51,545 nucleotides of DNA from a virus: the IMG/VR virus record IMGVR_UViG_3300045988_024116, positions 1 to 51,545 of that record; one strand, 5' to 3'. Made by a program: the position numbers and the translations under genes. Each line of letters begins with the position of its first letter. The stretch's first letter is position 1. Shown here one piece after another: positions 18,497 through 51,545 of this stretch. The notes under the pieces were generated by a model, which was given only the letters and a program-made list of their open reading frames with translations, was not told the DNA's origin and ran no database searches.

Positions 18497-19177
18497 TCAG
18501 CCGATCTTTGCGGCACCAACTACCAGGCCACCCCAACCGACGTTAGCGCCTGTCGAACAAGCGATCTTGACCGCAACCGCAACGCTCTTGTTAGGCGTGT
18601 TAGCGTAGTACGGAATGGGACTGCCCGTGAACAAGAAGCAACTTTCCGGCCTGTATGTGTTCATGGCACCGACGTTCTTGTACGGAGCACCCGCGACAGA
18701 GCAGAAAAGGTCAATGTTCGCGTTGACAGCACCAGCCGTAGAATCGTTAGCGATAGTGACATGGGATGTGATTAGCCAAACACCCTTCTTTGGCAGCATA
18801 ATGTTCTGGCTAATCACCGCATTAGCACCATTCACACCATAGCGGTACCACGTACCAAAGGCACGGTTGTCGTTAACGTAATCGACTTCAATATCACCAC
18901 CGCTGACCTTCGTCAGCTGACCATTAGTGTTGATAAGGAACTCGCCAGTGTCCTTACGGTAAACAAGCACATCAAACTGTCCCGCACTAGCCTTACGAAT
19001 AGCGGCCAGCTTAGTGTCATAATCGCTCGCGTTATTAGCAATAATGACACGGCCCTTTTGCAGACCCTTCACAACATCCGATACGGAGTTGAAACCAAGA
19101 TTCATAAACACCGGCCACGACTGCACAATATCACTGTCGCTGTAATTCCAGATGCCCTGATCGTTAATCGTACCCAT
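18497..19177 (-). CDS. Tail fibre or receptor-binding-type protein (last gene of the tail module)
   Basis: ORF track entry (226 aa). Called from its position downstream of the Dit/Tal-like genes; no diagnostic motif. Confidence 0.4.
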   Translation of the reverse strand: MGTINDQGIWNYSDSDIVQSWPVFMNLGFNSVSDVVKGLQKGRVIIANNASDYDTKLAAIRKASAGQFDVLVYRKDTGEFLINTNGQLTKVSGGDIEVDYVNDNRAFGTWYRYGVNGANAVISQNIMLPKKGVWLITSHVTIANDSTAGAVNANIDLFCSVAGAPYKNVGAMNTYRPESCFLFTGSPIPYYANTPNKSVAVAVKIACSTGANVGWGGLVVGAAKIG

Positions 19178-19178
19178 G

Positions 19179-19787
19179 TTAGTACCTCACTCCCGAGAGT
19201 TGGACAGACAAGTGCGCCTGCCCATTGTAATTGTCAATGTAACCAGGCTGTCCAAGCAACCCTTGAAACCCAATAAACGCATAGCCATACTGGAAGTTAT
19301 CGAAATCAACAACCATCGTAAACGACAACGAACAAGACAAGGCATAGCGAGTCGAGTTATTCTGACGCTCGAAAATCGAGTTAGCGTGGCTAACCAGTTT
19401 TCGCTCACGCATCTGGTTATCGCGCACACCGACGACAGCCTGGGGGTGCGTGTAGTTAGAAAGGTCAATCTCATTCGTTGGCAAGTAGAGATAACCTGTG
19501 ATTGACAACTGCATGAATGAACCAGAATAACCCCAGTCAAGGGGAAGTGTCCACAAGTCCTCATACGCACCAATACCGGGCCTCGCACCCGGCTGTTCAA
19601 TGAACAACTCATGGTAGAACGGCTGGGCAACACCGTTCGCAGCACGTGTCGAAGTCAAGGCACTAACAGCGTCATAAGAATTACTAACCTTGCTCTTCAT
19701 CAAGGTCATGTCATTCTCAAGATACGCTACGCGCCTGTCGATGTCACTTCCCCATGCCTGGGATGGGGTCGGCAGATTGTGCTTCAC
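19179..19787 (-). CDS. Tail tip or fibre-associated protein
   Basis: ORF track entry (202 aa). GTG start preceded by aaaggag; N-terminal coiled-coil-like segment. Confidence 0.4.
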   Translation of the reverse strand: MKHNLPTPSQAWGSDIDRRVAYLENDMTLMKSKVSNSYDAVSALTSTRAANGVAQPFYHELFIEQPGARPGIGAYEDLWTLPLDWGYSGSFMQLSITGYLYLPTNEIDLSNYTHPQAVVGVRDNQMRERKLVSHANSIFERQNNSTRYALSCSLSFTMVVDFDNFQYGYAFIGFQGLLGQPGYIDNYNGQAHLSVQLSGVRY

Positions 19788-37742: not shown

Positions 37743-38228
37743 TTACTCACTAACGGTTGACAAGTATTCTTGCCTCGCCTTATTATACCGTTCCTCAGCT
37801 TCTTCCAGCTTGCTCTTCGGCAGTACTCCGGGCCTATACGAGTAAGGCCACACACGCACAGCACGCGCAATAAAGAACAAACCAATGATTACTGACAAAA
37901 TAATAACATGAAGCGGCCAGCGCACATGTGCCGTGGTCAGCAGGAATTCATTAATCGAAATGAGCATAATGCCAACAAAGGATGTCAAGGCTGCTGGACC
38001 TTCCAACCACCAAGAACCAAGCCAGGCTGACGGCGCGCCCAAAGTACCTGAAACGAGCATAAGAACACCCGCAAGGATAACAACCCAAGGAAGCGCCGCA
38101 GCACTCGTCAAGAACCCAATACCTGTAATAGCGATAGCCGTGTAGATAACCACCATAATAGCAGTCACCGACCTCGGCTCACTCATTGATCTCAGCAACT
38201 TCTTCATGTCACTTATTATAGCGAACAC
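37743..38228 (-). CDS. Polytopic membrane protein (holin-like, about 4 TM)
   Basis: ORF track entry (161 aa) with four hydrophobic segments and a charged C-terminus. Adjacent to the endolysin. Confidence 0.5.
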   Translation of the reverse strand: MFAIISDMKKLLRSMSEPRSVTAIMVVIYTAIAITGIGFLTSAAALPWVVILAGVLMLVSGTLGAPSAWLGSWWLEGPAALTSFVGIMLISINEFLLTTAHVRWPLHVIILSVIIGLFFIARAVRVWPYSYRPGVLPKSKLEEAEERYNKARQEYLSTVSE

Positions 38229-38541: not shown

Positions 38542-39564
38542 TTACTTCGATTCTACCAGCTTCACGATACCGTCAGCGTCCTGTTCGACAACCAGCTTAC
38601 CGACAATCAGCTTGCCGTTCTCATCGAAAATCGAGCACGCACCATCAAGGCGCGTCTGAGCGAGGCCAACAGCCATAGAGCCGTCCTTGGTAAGGAAGTA
38701 ATCGCCGCCCTTGTACTGCAACCACCCGGTGCGCATAGCACCGTTTTCCTCAAGGTAGTACCACTTGCCCTTGACGAGCTGCCAGCCGGTCTGCATCTGG
38801 CCCTTGTCGTTCAGGAGGAACCAGTTTTCGTCGATCTTCTGCCAGCCAGTTTCCATCTCGCCGTAGCGCGAATCGTGCATATCATGCAGGAAGTACCAGT
38901 GGCCGTCGATATGCTGCCAACCAGCCTGCAACCAACCCTTCTCGTTGGCGTAGAACCACTTATCGTTCACAGGGAACCAGCCGGTCTCGAAACCACCGTC
39001 CGAGGTACGGTACCACCAGCCACCATTCTGCGACACCCAACCCTCAGACTGAGTGATCTCAGCATCAAGGTTGTCATAGTACGCCTGAGCCTTCTTCATG
39101 TACTCGCCAGCGTACGTATCGCGCAGAGACGCAGGGCAGGCAGTCGAATAGAAGTCCGAGTGGGGGAACACGTTGACACGCCACTGCGGACGGCCAAGGC
39201 CATACGCACGACACAGGGCCGCAGTCAGGTGCGCACCTGCATCAAGCGTCGCTTCACTGATGTCCCAGCCACCCTCAGCGCCAGTGGAGTTAGCGTGCTC
39301 AATGCCAATCGAACACGAGTTAACGCCGGGGCAGTGCCAGGCCGTGTCCTTGTCGTGGACGAACTGCGCGGTGCTGCCGTCAACGTCCACGTTGTAGTGC
39401 GCAGACGTGCCATTATGGTTAAACGCTGCAAGGACACCACCATGCGACATAGCCTTGCCAGCGTTATGGTGGACGATAACACGGTCAAGTGCTCGACTAC
39501 GGCCCTCATCGTAGTTATCACACCACAGGTTGTAATCAGCGATCAGATTATGCCAGTCAGTCAC
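38542..39564 (-). CDS. Endolysin: N-acetylmuramoyl-L-alanine amidase (Amidase_2/PGRP type) plus 6-7 CW_binding_1 repeats
   Basis: A likely GTG start at 39564 follows ggagaa (the track starts at 39603). Zn-ligand pattern VIVHHNAG ... PHSDFYSTACP. C-terminal repeats GW..x..W(Y/F)Y(L/F)..G.M.TGW. Confidence 0.85.
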   Translation of the reverse strand: MTDWHNLIADYNLWCDNYDEGRSRALDRVIVHHNAGKAMSHGGVLAAFNHNGTSAHYNVDVDGSTAQFVHDKDTAWHCPGVNSCSIGIEHANSTGAEGGWDISEATLDAGAHLTAALCRAYGLGRPQWRVNVFPHSDFYSTACPASLRDTYAGEYMKKAQAYYDNLDAEITQSEGWVSQNGGWWYRTSDGGFETGWFPVNDKWFYANEKGWLQAGWQHIDGHWYFLHDMHDSRYGEMETGWQKIDENWFLLNDKGQMQTGWQLVKGKWYYLEENGAMRTGWLQYKGGDYFLTKDGSMAVGLAQTRLDGACSIFDENGKLIVGKLVVEQDADGIVKLVESK

Positions 39565-39862
39565 TATAACTTCTCCTAATCTCCCAAGGACCGAAGTCCT
39601 CATACTCGGAGATAATCATATCAGTGAACACGCGGACACCCTCTTCAGTGACATACACCTGGGGATAAGAGTTTCTACCGTTCTTATAGACACGCCAGAT
39701 ACCAAGCAGTCCTTTAGCCTTTTCCGTAGGCTCGCTAATATGCCGACCCTTCTTCAGGTATCCTTCACGACGCAGAAGCCTAACAACCTTCGTAGGGCCG
39801 ATACTAGGAATCTCCCTTCTCAGGCTCTTACCGAAATCACGCAAGCTAATTTCTTCCATCAC
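39557..39862 (-). CDS. Hypothetical DNA-binding-like protein
   Basis: 101 aa. The segment SIGPTKVVRLLRREGYLKK is HTH-like; this is a weak call. Confidence 0.4.
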   Translation of the reverse strand: MMEEISLRDFGKSLRREIPSIGPTKVVRLLRREGYLKKGRHISEPTEKAKGLLGIWRVYKNGRNSYPQVYVTEEGVRVFTDMIISEYEDFGPWEIRRSYSD

Positions 39863-41484: not shown

Positions 41485-41513
41485 ATATTAGTACGTGTTA
41501 GTGTAGGGTACAA
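41485..41513 (-). promoter_or_regulatory. Candidate promoter for the 41461 gene block
   Basis: On the minus strand: TTGTAC (41513..41508), 17-nt spacer, TAATAT (41490..41485). Confidence 0.45.
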
Positions 41514-41556
41514 GCGAAACCTGTGTGACCTATGCCACACTGTGTTTTGGGTAAGA

Positions 41557-41590
41557 CAGAGCGCCAGCACTAAACAGCACTGGCGCTCTG
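41557..41590 (-). terminator. Hairpin terminating the moron transcription unit
   Basis: 11-bp stem cagagcgccag/ctggcgctctg, 33 nt after the stop codon of the surface protein gene. Confidence 0.5.
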
Positions 41591-41622
41591 CCCTGTTAGG
41601 AAGGAGGCTTCTAGTGTATCAC

Positions 41623-42945
41623 TCAGATATGGTCGTTGCCAAATCGACCGGCACGCCAGGCGAGGTAGCAGGCCAATGCACCACCACCGATTGCAATAAG
41701 CGCAATCACGATAGCCTCAGATGCAGCACCCGTCTTAGCGAGCTTGCCCTGTTCTGGTACGACAGCCGTGGCAGTCGGCTGAGGCGTAGGGGTCGCAGAC
41801 TGCGGCTCATCCGAGGGGCTAGGTGCCGGAGTAGGCTTCTCAGACGGTGCAGGAGCAGGCGTAGGCTTCTCGGAAGGAGTAGGCTCCGGCGTAACGCTAG
41901 GCGCAGGGGTCGGCTTCACAGAAGGTGTAGGCTGCGGGGCAGGCGTAACACTCGGCTCCGGTGCAGGGGCAGGCGTAGAAGGCTCCGGCGTAGGCTCAGG
42001 TGTGACGCTAGGCTCCGGCGACGGCTCAGGGGTAGGCTTCACAGAACCATTACCGTCCGTACCACCGTTACTCTTAACCGTTGCCGTAGCTTCGAGCTTC
42101 ATGCCGTTGATCTCAGCATGATTGGTCGCAGAGTTCTGACCCTCGGGAACGAGGGTATGCTCAGGCGGGTAGGTGACACACGTCTTGGAGCCTTCAGGGG
42201 CCGTGAACTTAATCGTGTTGTCATCAACCTGAGTAGCCGTGATAACCGCAGTCGTATCCGGGTTCCACGTATCCGACTTAGCACACTTCACGGTGGTTCC
42301 GAGCTTAGCGTCAAAGTCCTTAACAGTGTATTCGACACCACCCTTAGCAATCCACTTGATGCCCCACGAGATAGTCCCATCAGCATTAGACCACCCGAAC
42401 TTTACGTTCTCTGGGTTGGCATATTCATAATGGGCCGGGCCGTCACAATCGTTCGAGCATGTTCCGGTGCCCTCCTTATCGCCCCACACGAGCTTCTTCA
42501 CGGCCTCACCGTTCAGGGTGATCGTGCCTTCAGTGGTCCCAATCGCACCACCCTGAAGGCGAGCACGCGCCCACCAGGTGCCCTTCACGTCCGTCTTGTC
42601 TGCGTAAGAGGCCGGAACCTCCTTGACCGTGCAGGTCAGCGTCGCCTCGTTAGCCACACACTCACCAACGACAGTGCCGTCATCGAGCGTGAAGGGGAAA
42701 GAGGCGTTCCACACGAACGGAGCCTTACCCTCGTTCGGCACCGTCGAGACGGTGAAAGACTGGCCGACAGCCAGCTTCTCCACGGCCCAGGTACCGCCGA
42801 CGTTGACCTCAGAAGAGGTCTGGCGAGAAGAAGACGTAGCCTTCGTGACCTCGGCCTTGATCTCAGGGGTGTTGTCGGCAGCGTATGCCGCTGCCGGGGT
42901 GAGCATCAGGAGTGCGACACCTATCGTCGCAAGAAAACGCTTCAT
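41623..42945 (-). CDS. Secreted, cell-wall-anchored surface protein (adhesin-like) with an LAxTG sorting signal
   Basis: ATG 42945 follows gaaagga. Signal peptide [22 protein letters not shown]. About 100 aa of Pro/Thr/Ser/Glu-rich stalk. LAKTG (41728..41742) is followed by a hydrophobic stretch and WRAGRF. Confidence 0.8.
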
Positions 42946-43036
42946 GTTGATTGATCCTTTCGTTGTTGTCCGGTCTGACAACTTGAGTATAGCTGTCAGA
43001 CCGGACTTGATACAACTAATATGCGTGTGACTCTAC

Positions 43037-44110
43037 TCACAGCATGATGAAGACTAGGCAATCTTCCTCTCGCACCCAATCGTTCTTCGTCCTCTCACCC
43101 TTCGGCTTAGGCACCGGGGCAGGAGTTGGAGTCACTACGACAGGCGGCTCAGGTCGAGCGGGTGTCGGCGGCTGCGGAGAAGGTGTAGGAGGCACCACAA
43201 CCGGTGGTTCTGGCTTAGGAACTACAGGCTGTGGTTGTGGCTTAGGGTCTTCCACATATTTAGCAGCAATAGTACGGATATCGCCAGAAATATCTCTCAC
43301 GTTGCCAGGCTCGTCAAGACTGACGACGGATACGGCAGTGATGGTCATGGAAGAAGGATAGGCACCCTTGTGTTGAGTCGCATCAACATACCTGTCATGC
43401 CCAGGCTCAATACCACCAGAGTCAAGGAACGAACCACCAATGATGTGGGACAGACGGATAACCCACCCGTTCTCAGGATCAGTGAACGGTGAGGGGTCGC
43501 TCATCTCCGAGTATTTAACTGTATGAACAAGTTGATTCTCTAAGTAAAAGTCAACACGATCATTAAGTTTAGCAACACTATATAGATAGAAATATTTGTT
43601 GCTCTCATAGTTTCGCCTGTTTACTGTCGATAGTTGGACAACCTTTGCGTGTTGTTCACTCTTAGTAACATCACCAGCGCGCGGTGTATGAGTATTCACC
43701 TGGTATATGTTTTCTTGCCACCCCTTAGCCTCAAGGATGTCAATTTCACCACAAGCGGGCCAGTCACCCTTCGTGCCAGTCATCCAGATACCAGGCCAGG
43801 AAGGGCCAGCGGCAGGTAGCTTAGCGTACACCGACACGATAAACTGACCCTTAGCCTGAAAAAGAATCTCTCCCTTATCCGGCTTACGGGTATTGACCAT
43901 AGCAGACAAGAACGGGGCCTTTTCGGCATCTGCGCCGGTGGCAACGGTTCCATTTAGTTGAAGACCACCCCATTTCATAAATGAAATGTTCTTGTCTGTG
44001 AACCGCATCTGAGTACCCTTATTAGGGTCGAACTTACCCCAAACAGGCGACCACCTGGATGTGTCCAGACTTCTAAATTCGTCGTAAAAAAGTTGCTTAG
44101 CCATGCACAT
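43037..44110 (-). CDS. Glycoside hydrolase family 16 (beta-glucanase/laminarinase-like) with a Pro-rich C-terminal region
   Basis: Catalytic signature WPACGEIDILE (E-x-D-x-x-E). C-terminal PKPQPQPVVPKPEPPVVVPPTPSPQPP. No N-terminal signal peptide is visible. Confidence 0.75.
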   Translation of the reverse strand: MCMAKQLFYDEFRSLDTSRWSPVWGKFDPNKGTQMRFTDKNISFMKWGGLQLNGTVATGADAEKAPFLSAMVNTRKPDKGEILFQAKGQFIVSVYAKLPAAGPSWPGIWMTGTKGDWPACGEIDILEAKGWQENIYQVNTHTPRAGDVTKSEQHAKVVQLSTVNRRNYESNKYFYLYSVAKLNDRVDFYLENQLVHTVKYSEMSDPSPFTDPENGWVIRLSHIIGGSFLDSGGIEPGHDRYVDATQHKGAYPSSMTITAVSVVSLDEPGNVRDISGDIRTIAAKYVEDPKPQPQPVVPKPEPPVVVPPTPSPQPPTPARPEPPVVVTPTPAPVPKPKGERTKNDWVREEDCLVFIML

Positions 44111-44257: not shown

Positions 44258-44554
44258 TCACAGATGGTCGAAAGGACGCTGCTCCAAAATCTCTTCCATC
44301 TTATGCCCCGGAACGGTGTAAACGCCGGGCGAGACGACACCATAGGTCATGGGCTTAATCATCGTCACAGGAGCCTTCTCGACAATGCCCTGGTCGAGCA
44401 GAGCAATCAGCTCAGCATCCTTAGTGGTGATCGTGTAGACACCCGTACGGGCCTCCTGAGTGATGGTCGTCTTCATCTCGTCATTCTTGACGACGGACGA
44501 GTACGCGCCCTCGAAAGCCTTACCGAGCTTGACAGCGAGATCGACAATGCTCAT
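44258..44554 (-). CDS. Hypothetical protein (98 aa)
   Basis: ORF track entry; ATG preceded by aaggagtaacc. Confidence 0.6.
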   Translation of the reverse strand: MSIVDLAVKLGKAFEGAYSSVVKNDEMKTTITQEARTGVYTITTKDAELIALLDQGIVEKAPVTMIKPMTYGVVSPGVYTVPGHKMEEILEQRPFDHL

Positions 44555-45336: not shown

Positions 45337-45409
45337 GTGCTGCTACAGGACTCGAACCTGCAACCTCTGAGTCTTACTCAGTGCTCTCACCAATTTGAGC
45401 TAAGCAGCT
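45337..45409 (-). ncRNA. Aberrant tRNA-like gene (anticodon arm 2 nt short)
   Basis: Canonical D-arm (gctc-aaattggtga-gagc) and T-arm (gcagg-ttcgagt-cctgt). The anticodon arm ctgag-taaga-ctcag gives a 5-nt loop, or a 4-bp stem with loop gtaagac. There is an A1:A72 mismatch. Confidence 0.5.
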
Positions 45410-45438
45410 TGTTACCTGACCAGGGCAACCCAGCCGTT

Positions 45439-45489
45439 CGATGAGGGTGTCTTGGTCATGACACTTTGTGCTATCGAGCAAACCTCATC
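45439..45489 (-). ncRNA. Candidate 51-nt minihelix RNA in the tRNA cluster (weak)
   Basis: 7-bp terminal stem gatgagg/cctcatc, an internal hairpin tgct-cgat-agca, and the hairpin gtgtc-atgaccaa-gacac abutting the 3' strand. No canonical T-loop. Confidence 0.25.
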
Positions 45490-45497
45490 GTCAAGCG

Positions 45498-45568
45498 CTC
45501 CCAGACTAGGACTCGAACCTAGTCCGACAGGGCCAAAACCTGCCGTGCTGCCATTACACTATCTGGGA
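45498..45568 (-). tRNA. tRNA-Gln (anticodon TTG)
   Basis: Hand-folded cloverleaf: acceptor tcccaga/tctggga, anticodon stem gcagg/cctgt, loop ttTTGgc, T-arm ctagg-ttcgagt-cctag. Confidence 0.85.
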
Positions 45569-45575
45569 TTATGTG

Positions 45576-45647
45576 CTTCAGGGCCGGGAATCGAACCCGA
45601 GCCTCCGGGGCCTATACCCCAGTATGCTGCCACTACACCAGCCTGAA
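45576..45647 (-). ncRNA. Aberrant tRNA-like gene (anticodon ATA by canonical numbering, with stem mismatches)
   Basis: The D-arm gtgt-agtggca-gcat is paralogous to that of tRNA-Gln. T-arm tcggg-ttcgatt-cccgg. C7:C66 and U28:C42 mismatches; anticodon loop gtATAgg. Confidence 0.45.
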
Positions 45648-45651
45648 GCTG

Positions 45652-45723
45652 TCGGAATGGTGAGACTCGAACTCACGGCCCCCTGGTCCCAAACCAGGTG
45701 CGCTACCACTGCGCTACATTCCG
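45652..45723 (-). tRNA. tRNA-Pro (anticodon TGG)
   Basis: Hand-folded cloverleaf: acceptor cggaatg/cattccg, D-arm gcgc-agtggta-gcgc, anticodon loop ttTGGga, T-arm gtgag-ttcgagt-ctcac. Confidence 0.9.
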
Positions 45724-45887
45724 TTAGAAGGGGTGCTGTTGACTGACGAAACAAAAACCATCACACAAAAATTGTCAGCCCTAGGGTGCTACCCCGCACG
45801 TGACCCCCGTCACGGCAACCGGCACGTCCGCCTGATCAGGGCGGCAGGCGGCTATGGCCTAATCATCCAGCATCGTCCGGTGCTTGG

Positions 45888-45972
45888 TGGTCCCCTCGGT
45901 GAGAATCGAACTCACACTCCTTTCGGAACTCGATTTTGAGTCGAGCGCGTCTGCCTGTTCCGCCACAAGGGG
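45888..45972 (-). tRNA. tRNA-Leu (anticodon CAA), type II, with encoded CCA
   Basis: Acceptor ccccttg/cgagggg, D region tggcggaacaggcagacgcgc, anticodon loop ctCAAaa, long variable arm ttccgaaaggagt, T-arm gtgag-ttcgatt-ctcac, 3' a-cca. Confidence 0.85.
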
Positions 45973-47641: not shown

Positions 47642-47856
47642 TCTCGATTCTCCTTTGCTTCAACAAGACGATACTTAGCAATCGCGTAGTCATCCTTCTC
47701 TTCTTCGACAAACTGACCAACACGGCCAATGCCGCCCCAGCCCATCTTCTCAGACAGGTAAGCGTGAACAATCTTGTACTTCTTACCGCTACCAGTCTTG
47801 ATACTGCCTGTCTTCTTATTGAAAATCACGTAGATTTCCTCAGCAGGTTCAATCAT
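47638..47856 (-). CDS. Hypothetical protein (72 aa)
   Basis: ORF track entry. Confidence 0.55.
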   Translation of the reverse strand: MIEPAEEIYVIFNKKTGSIKTGSGKKYKIVHAYLSEKMGWGGIGRVGQFVEEEKDDYAIAKYRLVEAKENRE

Positions 47857-48260
47857 CAGTTCTCATCTCCGCTCGTCTGAAGGTCAATGTCCGGCAGAAG
47901 CGTCTCAGGACGGAACGCAACCTTGTAGTGGAACGTATCAACATTAGAGCCGTCCATCTGCTCCACAAAATACGTCACATTATCCGAGATACCTAGAAAA
48001 TGCTTCTTGTACTCGTCCTCACCCGTCTTGCAGGTGACTTCAAGCTGGTTGTCTTCCTTGTCCTTCGTAATCGAGCACAAACCTTCGATGCTCAGAAGGT
48101 ACTTGTCCGTGATGCCATTGACGAATACAACCCGTCGCATCACACGGAAATTGTCGCTCTCGTAGCTGATGTTACGCGAGGCCGTTTCAGCCGCGTTACA
48201 CGCACCCAGCGAAAGCGCCGCAGCAACAGCGACGACAGGCCCGATAATCTTCTTCATCAT
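47856..48260 (-). CDS. Putative lipoprotein (candidate superinfection-exclusion factor)
   Basis: N-terminus MMKKIIGPVVAVAAALSLGAC: a signal peptide ending in a lipobox-like LGAC. Confidence 0.6.
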   Translation of the reverse strand: MMKKIIGPVVAVAAALSLGACNAAETASRNISYESDNFRVMRRVVFVNGITDKYLLSIEGLCSITKDKEDNQLEVTCKTGEDEYKKHFLGISDNVTYFVEQMDGSNVDTFHYKVAFRPETLLPDIDLQTSGDEN

Positions 48261-51490: not shown

Positions 51491-51545
51491 CCCCGCTGTC
51501 AAGCGACCGACCGACCAACTCACCTGCCTACCTGCCACATCCTAC
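51491..51545. repeat. Second copy of the 55-bp end repeat (equals 1..55)
   Basis: Exact identity to bases 1-55. Confidence 0.95.

Follow-up and report, generated by a model that had tools for sequence, protein, structure and literature searches.

A predicted sortase-anchored, MSCRAMM-like adhesin carried as a cassette by a phage without recognisable lysogeny genes

The adhesin gene and its product

The viral sequence IMGVR_UViG_3300045988_024116 of the IMG/VR collection (positions 1 to 51,545, the whole of which is referred to here as the window) carries on its minus strand, at 41623-42945, a gene encoding a 440 amino acid adhesin-like protein (coordinates from the ATG and including the stop codon, taken from the open reading frame (ORF) list and translation). 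The sequence AAAGGA is found 9 nt upstream of the ATG, and an alternative TTG start at 42981 would extend the product to 452 amino acids. An earlier note, made by reading the letters of this DNA, described the product as a sortase-anchored surface protein with a Sec signal peptide, a cysteine-containing beta-rich domain, a stalk and an LAxTG sorting signal, and all of these are present in the translation. The Sec signal peptide (amino acids 1-22; 42880-42945, minus strand) was recognised by direct reading and by a hydropathy window above 1.6 at amino acids 1-23. By inspection, it comprises a positively charged n-region (MKR), a 17-residue hydrophobic core and an AYA|AD cleavage motif, so that cleavage would be expected after AYA. 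Only one other hydrophobic stretch is seen, at amino acids 405-430. The mature domain extends from amino acid 24 to approximately 300 (about 270-275 residues), is all-beta in the structural model described below and contains cysteines at positions 96, 105, 163, 167, 221 and 256.

Beyond this domain, which we refer to as the head, lies a stalk rich in proline, threonine, serine and glutamate (amino acids ~300-401; 41743-42048, minus strand), defined by its composition (35% Pro, 15% Thr, 11% Ser and 10% Glu across amino acids 303-401), by pLDDT values below 50 and by indels in the alignment that give it a different length in different relatives. The protein ends in a cell-wall sorting signal, also identified by direct reading (41626-41742, minus strand), made up of LAKTG (amino acids 402-406; 41728-41742), a 24-residue hydrophobic segment and a 10-residue positively charged tail. 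The leucine, threonine and glycine columns of the motif are nearly invariant in 34 family sequences. Across the family it reads LA[KHRQIV]TG or LPxTG, with LA[KHRQ]TG typical of the phage and Actinomyces-type proteins and LA[IV]TG of those from Candidatus Saccharibacteria (TM7). LAxTG is the signal recognised by class E sortases (PMC5148588).

The earlier note suggested a Cna/MSCRAMM-like fold, and structure prediction bears this out. An AlphaFold model of amino acids 24-318, built with 34 homologues, has a mean pLDDT of 88.6 and consists of two beta domains with a well-ordered loop between them. When compared with the PDB using Foldseek, it matches with probability 1.0 the N1N2 region of Staphylococcus aureus Cna (E 2e-10), ClfB, FnBPA, S. 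mutans Cnm, Candida Als3/9, Srr1/2 and UafA, all of these matches being to the ligand-binding regions of wall-anchored adhesins. The first IgG-like domain (amino acids ~30-153; 42487-42858, minus strand) corresponds to strands 7-130 of the trimmed model, has a pLDDT of ~90-96, contains the invariant Cys96-Cys105 pair and shows the likeness to Cna, ClfB and FnBPA. The inter-domain loop (amino acids ~154-180; 42406-42486, minus strand) has a high pLDDT without secondary structure and carries the motif GDxDGxGxCxxDC (Cys163 and Cys167), whose aspartate, glycine and cysteine columns are nearly invariant; it may possibly form a Ca2+ site or a disulfide knot. The second IgG-like domain (amino acids ~181-289; 42079-42405, minus strand; strands 158-266 of the trimmed model) contains the Cys221-Cys256 pair together with K182, D210, N275 and N280 (C198, C233, K159, D187, N252 and N257, respectively, in the numbering of the trimmed model). 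Both cysteine pairs and these four residues are invariant across 16-34 diverse sequences that include TM7 and Actinomyces proteins, with the CxxxC of the loop nearly so in the same set. The K182/D210/N275/N280 set is what a CnaA-type isopeptide domain would need and offers a lead in that direction; in such domains a lysine of the first strand, an asparagine of the last strand and a catalytic Asp or Glu touch one another.

The resemblance to the staphylococcal adhesins lies in structure and layout: two tandem IgG-like head domains (Foldseek E 2e-10 to 4e-8, TM ~0.47-0.51), a signal peptide, a stalk and a C-terminal sortase signal. Sequence identity to Cna, ClfB and FnBPA is, however, just 11-16%, and unlike them the phage protein has three disulfide-type cysteine pairs, the GDxDGxGxCxxDC loop and LAxTG in place of LPxTG, and is phage-borne. 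A first profile search of the PDB returned only low-complexity matches to the stalk and weak matches to Als9 and SdrG, and a domain-only profile run against PDB sequences gave one irrelevant match and no alignment to Cna, so the putative isopeptide triad cannot be aligned to that of Cna by sequence. MSCRAMMs are defined by at least two adjacent IgG-like (DEv-IgG) subdomains, which the model displays, and by membership of particular sequence families. The window protein matches neither Big_8 (PF17961) nor Collagen_bind (PF05737), but distant Actinomyces-type members of its family carry PF17961, the SDR-like Ig domain. In the BFVD database of viral structures there is one strong match, and it is to a metagenomic siphovirus protein annotated ‘Clumping factor’. 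Judged by its modelled fold and layout, then, the protein is likely to work as an MSCRAMM does.

Selection and exchange of the adhesin cassette

Database searches identify more than 2,500 homologues of the adhesin, the best 120 of which are 83-99% identical to it and mostly found on contigs of ~50 kb. When clustered at 50% identity, the family comprises 37 clusters among 1.84 billion representatives. To compare genomes independently of the adhesin itself, 28 relatives of the window were fetched by way of the flanking gene p182. The adhesin gene is in the same place in 26 of the 28, the two most divergent relatives lacking the entire block of p98, GH16 (where present) and adhesin genes. In the head, the ratio of non-synonymous to synonymous substitutions (dN/dS) is 0.11, compared with 0.08-0.17 in neighbouring genes, and dS is higher (0.65 versus ~0.40-0.47). 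The adhesin gene is therefore under purifying selection. Raw protein identities (66-96%, against 95-100% for the neighbours) give the appearance of a fast-evolving surface protein, an idea that was rejected in view of the low dN/dS of the head and the concentration of length and identity differences in the stalk.

Allele histories were compared across 18 genomes by Mantel tests. The adhesin shows little correlation with the adjacent p182, dUTPase and endolysin genes (r 0.04-0.15), whereas these three are strongly correlated with one another (r = 0.83). Only one neighbour, the small gene p98 (44258-44554, minus strand), has an allele history correlated with that of the adhesin (r = 0.35, p = 0.001); in the two most divergent relatives, p98 and the adhesin gene are both missing.

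Stable hairpins are found on both sides of the gene. The downstream stem-loop (41553-41594, minus strand, with its core at 41557-41590; -33.9 kcal/mol for the extended stem) is kept in 15 related genomes, in which base pairs at three positions show compensatory changes on both sides. The earlier note took this hairpin for a terminator; the structure is real and backed by covariation, but as it lacks a U-tract its role in termination is putative, and it is probably either a U-tract-less terminator or an RNA-stabilising element. Upstream, a 16-bp stem-loop (42968-43006, minus strand; -30.3 kcal/mol) lies between the GH16 and adhesin genes and ends 22 nt before the ATG. No promoter fits between this hairpin and the ATG. 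A promoter-like sequence, TTGTAC-17 nt-TAATAT, is found ahead of the next gene, p182 (41485-41513, minus strand); both hexamers are conserved in 15 genomes, with a score of 8/12 that is under the threshold of the consensus scan. Of the suggestion that the gene is a moron, the terminator-like hairpin thus stands but a promoter of its own does not, and the carrier has no integrase or recognisable repressor, whereas morons and lysogenic-conversion genes are units of temperate phages expressed in the lysogen. Taken together, the purifying selection, the uncoupling of the allele history of the adhesin from those of adjacent genes and the stable hairpins on either side show that the adhesin gene is functional and recombines as an independent cassette bracketed by two hairpins.

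Next to the upstream hairpin lies a gene for an accessory glycoside hydrolase of family GH16 (357 amino acids; 43037-44110, minus strand), identified by a Pfam GH16 match of 25.5 bits and by laminarinase-type PDB matches. Its EIDILE catalytic motif is intact, it has no signal peptide and its C-terminus is proline-rich. No homologue was found among 50,697 deposited phages. GH16 had been put forward as the partner gene of the adhesin, but it is present in only around one-third of the relatives and is better described as an optional neighbour; a functional partnership was rejected as a general rule on these grounds, although the adjacency of the two genes recurs in one other lineage (locus L031).

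The carrier phage, its host and the spread of the family

The first 55 bases of the window are repeated exactly as its last 55 (1-55 = 51491-51545), a repeat that probably stems from assembler k-mer overlap and marks the window as a complete, circularly assembled genome of ~51,490 bp. A plus-strand block at 1.4-18.4 kb encodes an SNF2 helicase, an exonuclease, an AAA_24 protein, SSB, a primase, PolA and a dCMP deaminase. The minus-strand block that follows encodes tail proteins, a tape measure protein, capsid and protease, portal, TerL, an Amidase_2 endolysin with choline-binding repeats, a KilAC-like protein, a glutaredoxin and a dUTPase. The cargo region comes after this block and is itself followed by five tRNAs and small genes. 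The structural module spans 18.5-37.4 kb, with the adhesin gene outside it. Every ORF of at least 250 amino acids can be assigned to replication, structure, lysis or the adhesin cargo, and none of them is an integrase, serine recombinase, protelomerase or partition protein. Likewise, the integrase of the temperate Schaalia odontolytica phage xhp1 finds no match in the window when used as a tblastn query, and no helix-turn-helix repressor was recognised among the small window ORFs tested. As far as can be judged from a complete circular genome with no integrase, recombinase or recognisable repressor, the description of the phage as apparently lytic holds.

Several other features of the genome deserve mention. 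The protein encoded at 47856-48260 (minus strand) is labelled ‘recombination directionality factor’ in PHROGs (E 6e-53) and matches Pfam Phage_VG64 (E 9e-54), a mycobacteriophage protein family; the former label is probably misleading, given that the genome has no integrase. The endolysin gene (38542-39603, minus strand) and a gene for a membrane protein (37743-38228, minus strand) do not follow the tail genes but lie upstream of those for the terminase, and a 101 amino acid KilAC/ANT-like ORF (39557-39862) overlaps the start of the endolysin. The tRNA cluster (45337-45972, minus strand) comprises genes for Leu-AAG, Gln-UUG, a Tyr tRNA with the unusual anticodon AUA, Pro-UGG and Leu-CAA, most of which read A/U-ending codons. 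The tRNA-Pro does not appear tuned to the adhesin stalk, where proline codons are mostly CCT and CCG. No close relative of the phage was found by megablast among the 50,697 deposited phages, and its TerL is 42% identical to those of Arthrobacter phages.

Among the same deposited phages, the adhesin domain is found in two only, both of which carry true homologues of the same architecture (including LAKTG) annotated as ‘hypothetical protein’. One is gp38 of phage xhp1 (XHP1_00038, AVJ50975.1; 57% head identity), whose genome, unlike the window, has an integrase, although the homologue is not beside it. The other, WMC01323.1 of the saliva phage Caudovirus D_HF4_2 (72% head identity), represents a second integrase-less lineage of 51% GC. 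Further alleles, 72-82% identical, are carried by integrase-linked viral contigs of 63-65% GC, and a homologue is also found in an element made of small unknown genes. A search of genomes with a seven-sequence alignment as profile extended the family to cellular chromosomes, Actinomyces proteins being the more distant (25-33% identity). The A. howellii homologue (LR134350.1; L003, 10001-11296) comes after rplQ, where a cluster of ribosomal-protein genes ends.

Outside phages, the closest relatives at the level of 50% clusters are proteins of Candidatus Saccharibacteria (Nanosynbacter, TM7). They come from many genomes, among them assemblies made from isolates, one single-cell genome and contigs 280-726 kb long, and have the full architecture, the same Cys, Lys, Asp and Asn invariants, LAITG or LAVTG and 46-51% head identity. 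In the loci examined, the gene is always located between rplA and rplJ, and it has a GC content of 0.57-0.62 in flanks of 0.44-0.46. More than 1,400 Saccharibacteria variants are seen, with a full-length example at ~10001-11434 of L088 and islands in L075, L080 and L087-L089; in one chromosome (OX335598.1; L081) the copy looks disrupted, with an ORF of 151 amino acids only. The ribosomal-operon position echoes that of the A. howellii gene, which may be a coincidence or may reflect selection for high expression. In some TM7 genomes (L088, 11614-11940; L076, L078, L079 and L089), the homologue is directly followed by a gene of the WhiB family, a family known mainly from Actinobacteria and their phages. 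A phage origin for this WhiB gene was considered and rejected, as it has a TM7-like GC content (0.44) and no homologue in the phage loci.

Neighbour joining places the TM7 and phage proteins in sister clades, with the Actinomyces chromosomal proteins as outgroup. The GC content at third codon positions of the head (GC3) is 0.72-0.90 in the high-GC temperate contigs and remains at 0.64-0.76 in the 51%-GC phages and the 45%-GC TM7 genomes. Such retention of high GC3 points to import: both the 51%-GC phages and TM7 appear to have acquired the gene from a high-GC Actinomycetaceae pool, the direction of transfer being read from composition. That the family is shared with temperate phages and Saccharibacteria goes beyond the account given in the earlier note.

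The note had pointed to an actinobacterial host on the basis of the LAxTG motif, and this fits with the homologues in xhp1 and Actinomyces chromosomes, the Phage_VG64 gene and the integrase-linked contigs. More specifically, a host among the oral Actinomycetaceae, probably Schaalia, is suggested by the sorting motif, the disulfide-rich exported domain, the link to xhp1, Phage_VG64, a terminase resembling that of Arthrobacter phages and the temperate phages of 64% GC that carry very similar alleles. The five tRNAs, reading A/U-ending codons, fit with a low-GC phage in a high-GC host. TM7 was also considered as a host but rejected: LAKTG is of the Actinomyces/xhp1 type, the phage has actinophage gene families and an Arthrobacter-like TerL, its GC content is higher than that of TM7 and its tRNAs read A/U-ending codons.

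Possible roles of the adhesin

With a probability of roughly 85%, we consider the protein to be a sortase-anchored surface adhesin made in the infected cell. On the best reading of the evidence, its gene is a mobile cassette that passes between phages infecting oral Actinomycetaceae (Schaalia/Actinomyces). In the scheme we propose, the phage transcript would be translated during infection and the product exported by the Sec pathway, after which the oxidative folding machinery of the host would close the three cysteine pairs. The housekeeping class E sortase of the host would then, judging from the motif, cut LAKT|G and join the protein to peptidoglycan precursors; no sortase was found among the phage's own genes in Pfam and PHROG scans of the window ORFs. 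Once anchored, the ~100-residue stalk would hold the ligand-binding head of two IgG domains beyond the wall, where it could bind a ligand in trans on neighbouring Actinomycetaceae cells, partner bacteria or the salivary pellicle. Infected cells, and wall remnants after lysis, might thereby stay in a host-dense biofilm or aggregate, leading to more transmission. That adhesion in trans is the role under selection is a tentative proposal, to which we would give somewhat less than an even chance; it is suggested because such binding is the ordinary function of the MSCRAMM fold and architecture.

A number of observations weigh against this picture. Neither the window protein nor its xhp1 and TM7 homologues match the LPXTG anchor model TIGR01167, which is built mainly on LPXTG tails, with E <= 0.05, and only a distant family member (P0177) scored on it at all, with 15.2 bits against a cut-off of 15.9. 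The window adhesin is below threshold in Pfam (a sub-threshold DUF6013 match only), in PHROGs and in an NCBIfam scan. The model has no docked latch strand, such as MSCRAMMs use when they capture ligands by dock-lock-latch or collagen hug, and residues 270-289 following domain 2 have a pLDDT below 50. The host, and hence the host sortase, is inferred rather than identified. A virulent phage would profit from an adhesin only during the latent period and for the lifetime of the wall debris, and the literature searched holds no precedent for such profit. Finally, the data fit binding in trans (adhesion) and binding in cis (masking) alike. As regards the database scans, P0182, a protein ~88% identical to the window head, carries a precomputed match to Pfam PF27998.1 that is not seen with the local Pfam copy, and a very recent Pfam family may already cover the adhesin domain.

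The strongest alternative, though an unlikely one, is that the anchored protein serves in surface masking or exclusion, either binding the wall of its own infected cell in cis or capturing incoming particles. By analogy with T5 Llp and TP-J34 Ltp, this could block superinfecting phages, the adsorption of progeny to wall debris or the docking of TM7 epibionts. In virulent-type and temperate phages alike, the gene belongs to a lytic-cycle transcription unit, which in xhp1 is away from the integrase, and its conservation by purifying selection where the phage has no lysogeny genes speaks for an advantage in the course of lytic growth. Llp, Ltp and the lactococcal Sie2009 are, like the adhesin, phage-encoded and placed on the envelope of the infected cell in the lytic or lysogenic cycle, but they act at the membrane or on a receptor in the outer membrane and have no stalk or sortase signal; like these three, known exclusion proteins are lipoproteins or membrane proteins, and none is known to be a stalked sortase substrate. 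The adhesin's own anchor is a sortase signal rather than a lipobox or N-terminal transmembrane segment, and no exclusion-type homology was found in PHROGs (PADLOC was not searched).

Variation among the phages also bears on this alternative. Co-variation of adhesin and tail genes, as a signature of receptor masking, was looked for and not found, the correlation of adhesin alleles with those of tail-tip genes being low and not significant (Mantel r 0.11-0.14). Moreover, amino acid distances across the 18 genomes average 9% in the adhesin head, as against 21-25% in the putative receptor-binding tail genes, which are far less conserved. The most variable of the genes compared are two that follow the gene for a 599 amino acid tail protein (202 and 226 amino acids; 18497-19787, minus strand), which vary together (r = 0.92) and are likely to be receptor-binding or host-range determinants.

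In favour of masking, the closest non-phage relatives of the adhesin are found in TM7, whose sole known binding partner is the same host, and phage, host and TM7 are known to interfere with one another at surface receptors: TM7x lowers the susceptibility of S. odontolytica to the lytic phage LC001 through a down-regulated wall-polysaccharide receptor cluster (PMC11032452), and TM7x, to which Xhp1 virions bind, can serve as a phage sink (PMC13578794). MSCRAMM heads, however, usually bind peptides, whereas the one Schaalia phage receptor identified is a wall polysaccharide (PMC11032452).

Could the phage instead be cryptically temperate or pseudolysogenic, with the adhesin as lysogenic-conversion cargo expressed from a carried phage genome? 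Homologues in true temperate phages (xhp1 and the integrase-linked contigs), the KilAC/ANT-like gene and the gene labelled as a recombination directionality factor are consistent with this idea. Against these must be set the complete circular genome with all ORFs of at least 250 amino acids accounted for and no integrase, serine recombinase, protelomerase or partition protein among them, the failure of the xhp1 integrase to find a counterpart, the membership of the supposed directionality factor in the mycobacteriophage family Phage_VG64, the phage's own PolA, primase, helicase, nucleotide-metabolism genes and five tRNAs, and a GC content 13 points below that of the temperate relatives, which together make the idea very unlikely.

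It is most improbable that the gene is a neutral passenger, taken up recently from a host or prophage and of no use to the phage: its composition is foreign (domain GC 0.57 versus 0.52 for the genome) and it is absent from the two most divergent relatives, but it is intact, with signal peptide, cysteine pairs and sorting signal all kept, in 26 of 28 genomes spanning a dS of ~0.65 at a dN/dS of 0.11. Hardly credible is a virion-associated Ig-like decoration or tail adhesin, of the Hoc-like or BAM mucus-binding type, since, common as Ig-like domains are on virions and despite the resemblance of the neighbouring GH16 to glycan-degrading enzymes (including entries 6t2n and 6t2r), the cleavable Sec signal and C-terminal sortase signal would route the protein out of the cytoplasm, where virions assemble, and the gene is outside the structural module.

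An anchored adhesin in a phage is not in itself without parallel. SasX (SasX/SesI), an LPXTG protein borne by a staphylococcal phiSPbeta-like prophage (PMC7047976), offers an example of a phage-carried, sortase-anchored surface protein that changes the adhesion of the host. SasX, however, is found on a prophage and acts in lysogens, whereas the present carrier has no lysogeny genes; there is no sequence kinship between the two proteins, and SasX lacks the two-domain head of an MSCRAMM. The Saccharibacteria LA[IV]TG proteins share the stalk and sorting-signal layout with the phage protein but differ in being chromosomal, at a fixed core-genome site in a 45%-GC epibiont. The paper on xhp1 and TM7x makes no mention of gp38, nor of the D_HF4_2 homologue. 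Within an incomplete coverage of the literature, which took in phage-encoded LPXTG exclusion proteins and Saccharibacteria LPXTG proteins or sortases, no paper was found on the family in phages or Saccharibacteria.

Whilst phage sortase-anchored adhesins are already known as lysogenic-conversion cargo, what is new here is that phages with no lysogeny genes maintain, under selection, a predicted sortase-anchored adhesin of MSCRAMM-like type, and that its family is common to the epibionts of the same host. A conserved adhesin in such a lineage implies that remodelling of the wall surface pays during lytic growth in a biofilm. The family has also moved among virulent-type phages, temperate phages and Saccharibacteria chromosomes, linking three partners whose surface interactions are under active study. 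Schaalia remodels its surface-anchored proteins upon TM7 infection (PMC13622651), and a surface-binding module common to host, phage and TM7 would fit with this and the other published interactions. Taken further, the family might be a molecular interface among Schaalia/Actinomyces, their phages and their Saccharibacteria epibionts, in which the TM7 copy docks on the basibiont and the phage-displayed head competes for, masks or mimics the same ligand. We regard this as a long shot, but were it true, the phage could govern whether epibionts attach and, with that, the effects reported for TM7x on phages (‘phage sink’) and on receptors (down-regulation), or steer encounters between virions and TM7. 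As xhp1, XH001 and TM7x are culturable, and genetic modification of both S. odontolytica and Saccharibacteria has been published, the hypothesis is directly testable, and the ligand, if identified, could bear on how epibionts of the candidate phyla radiation recognise their hosts.

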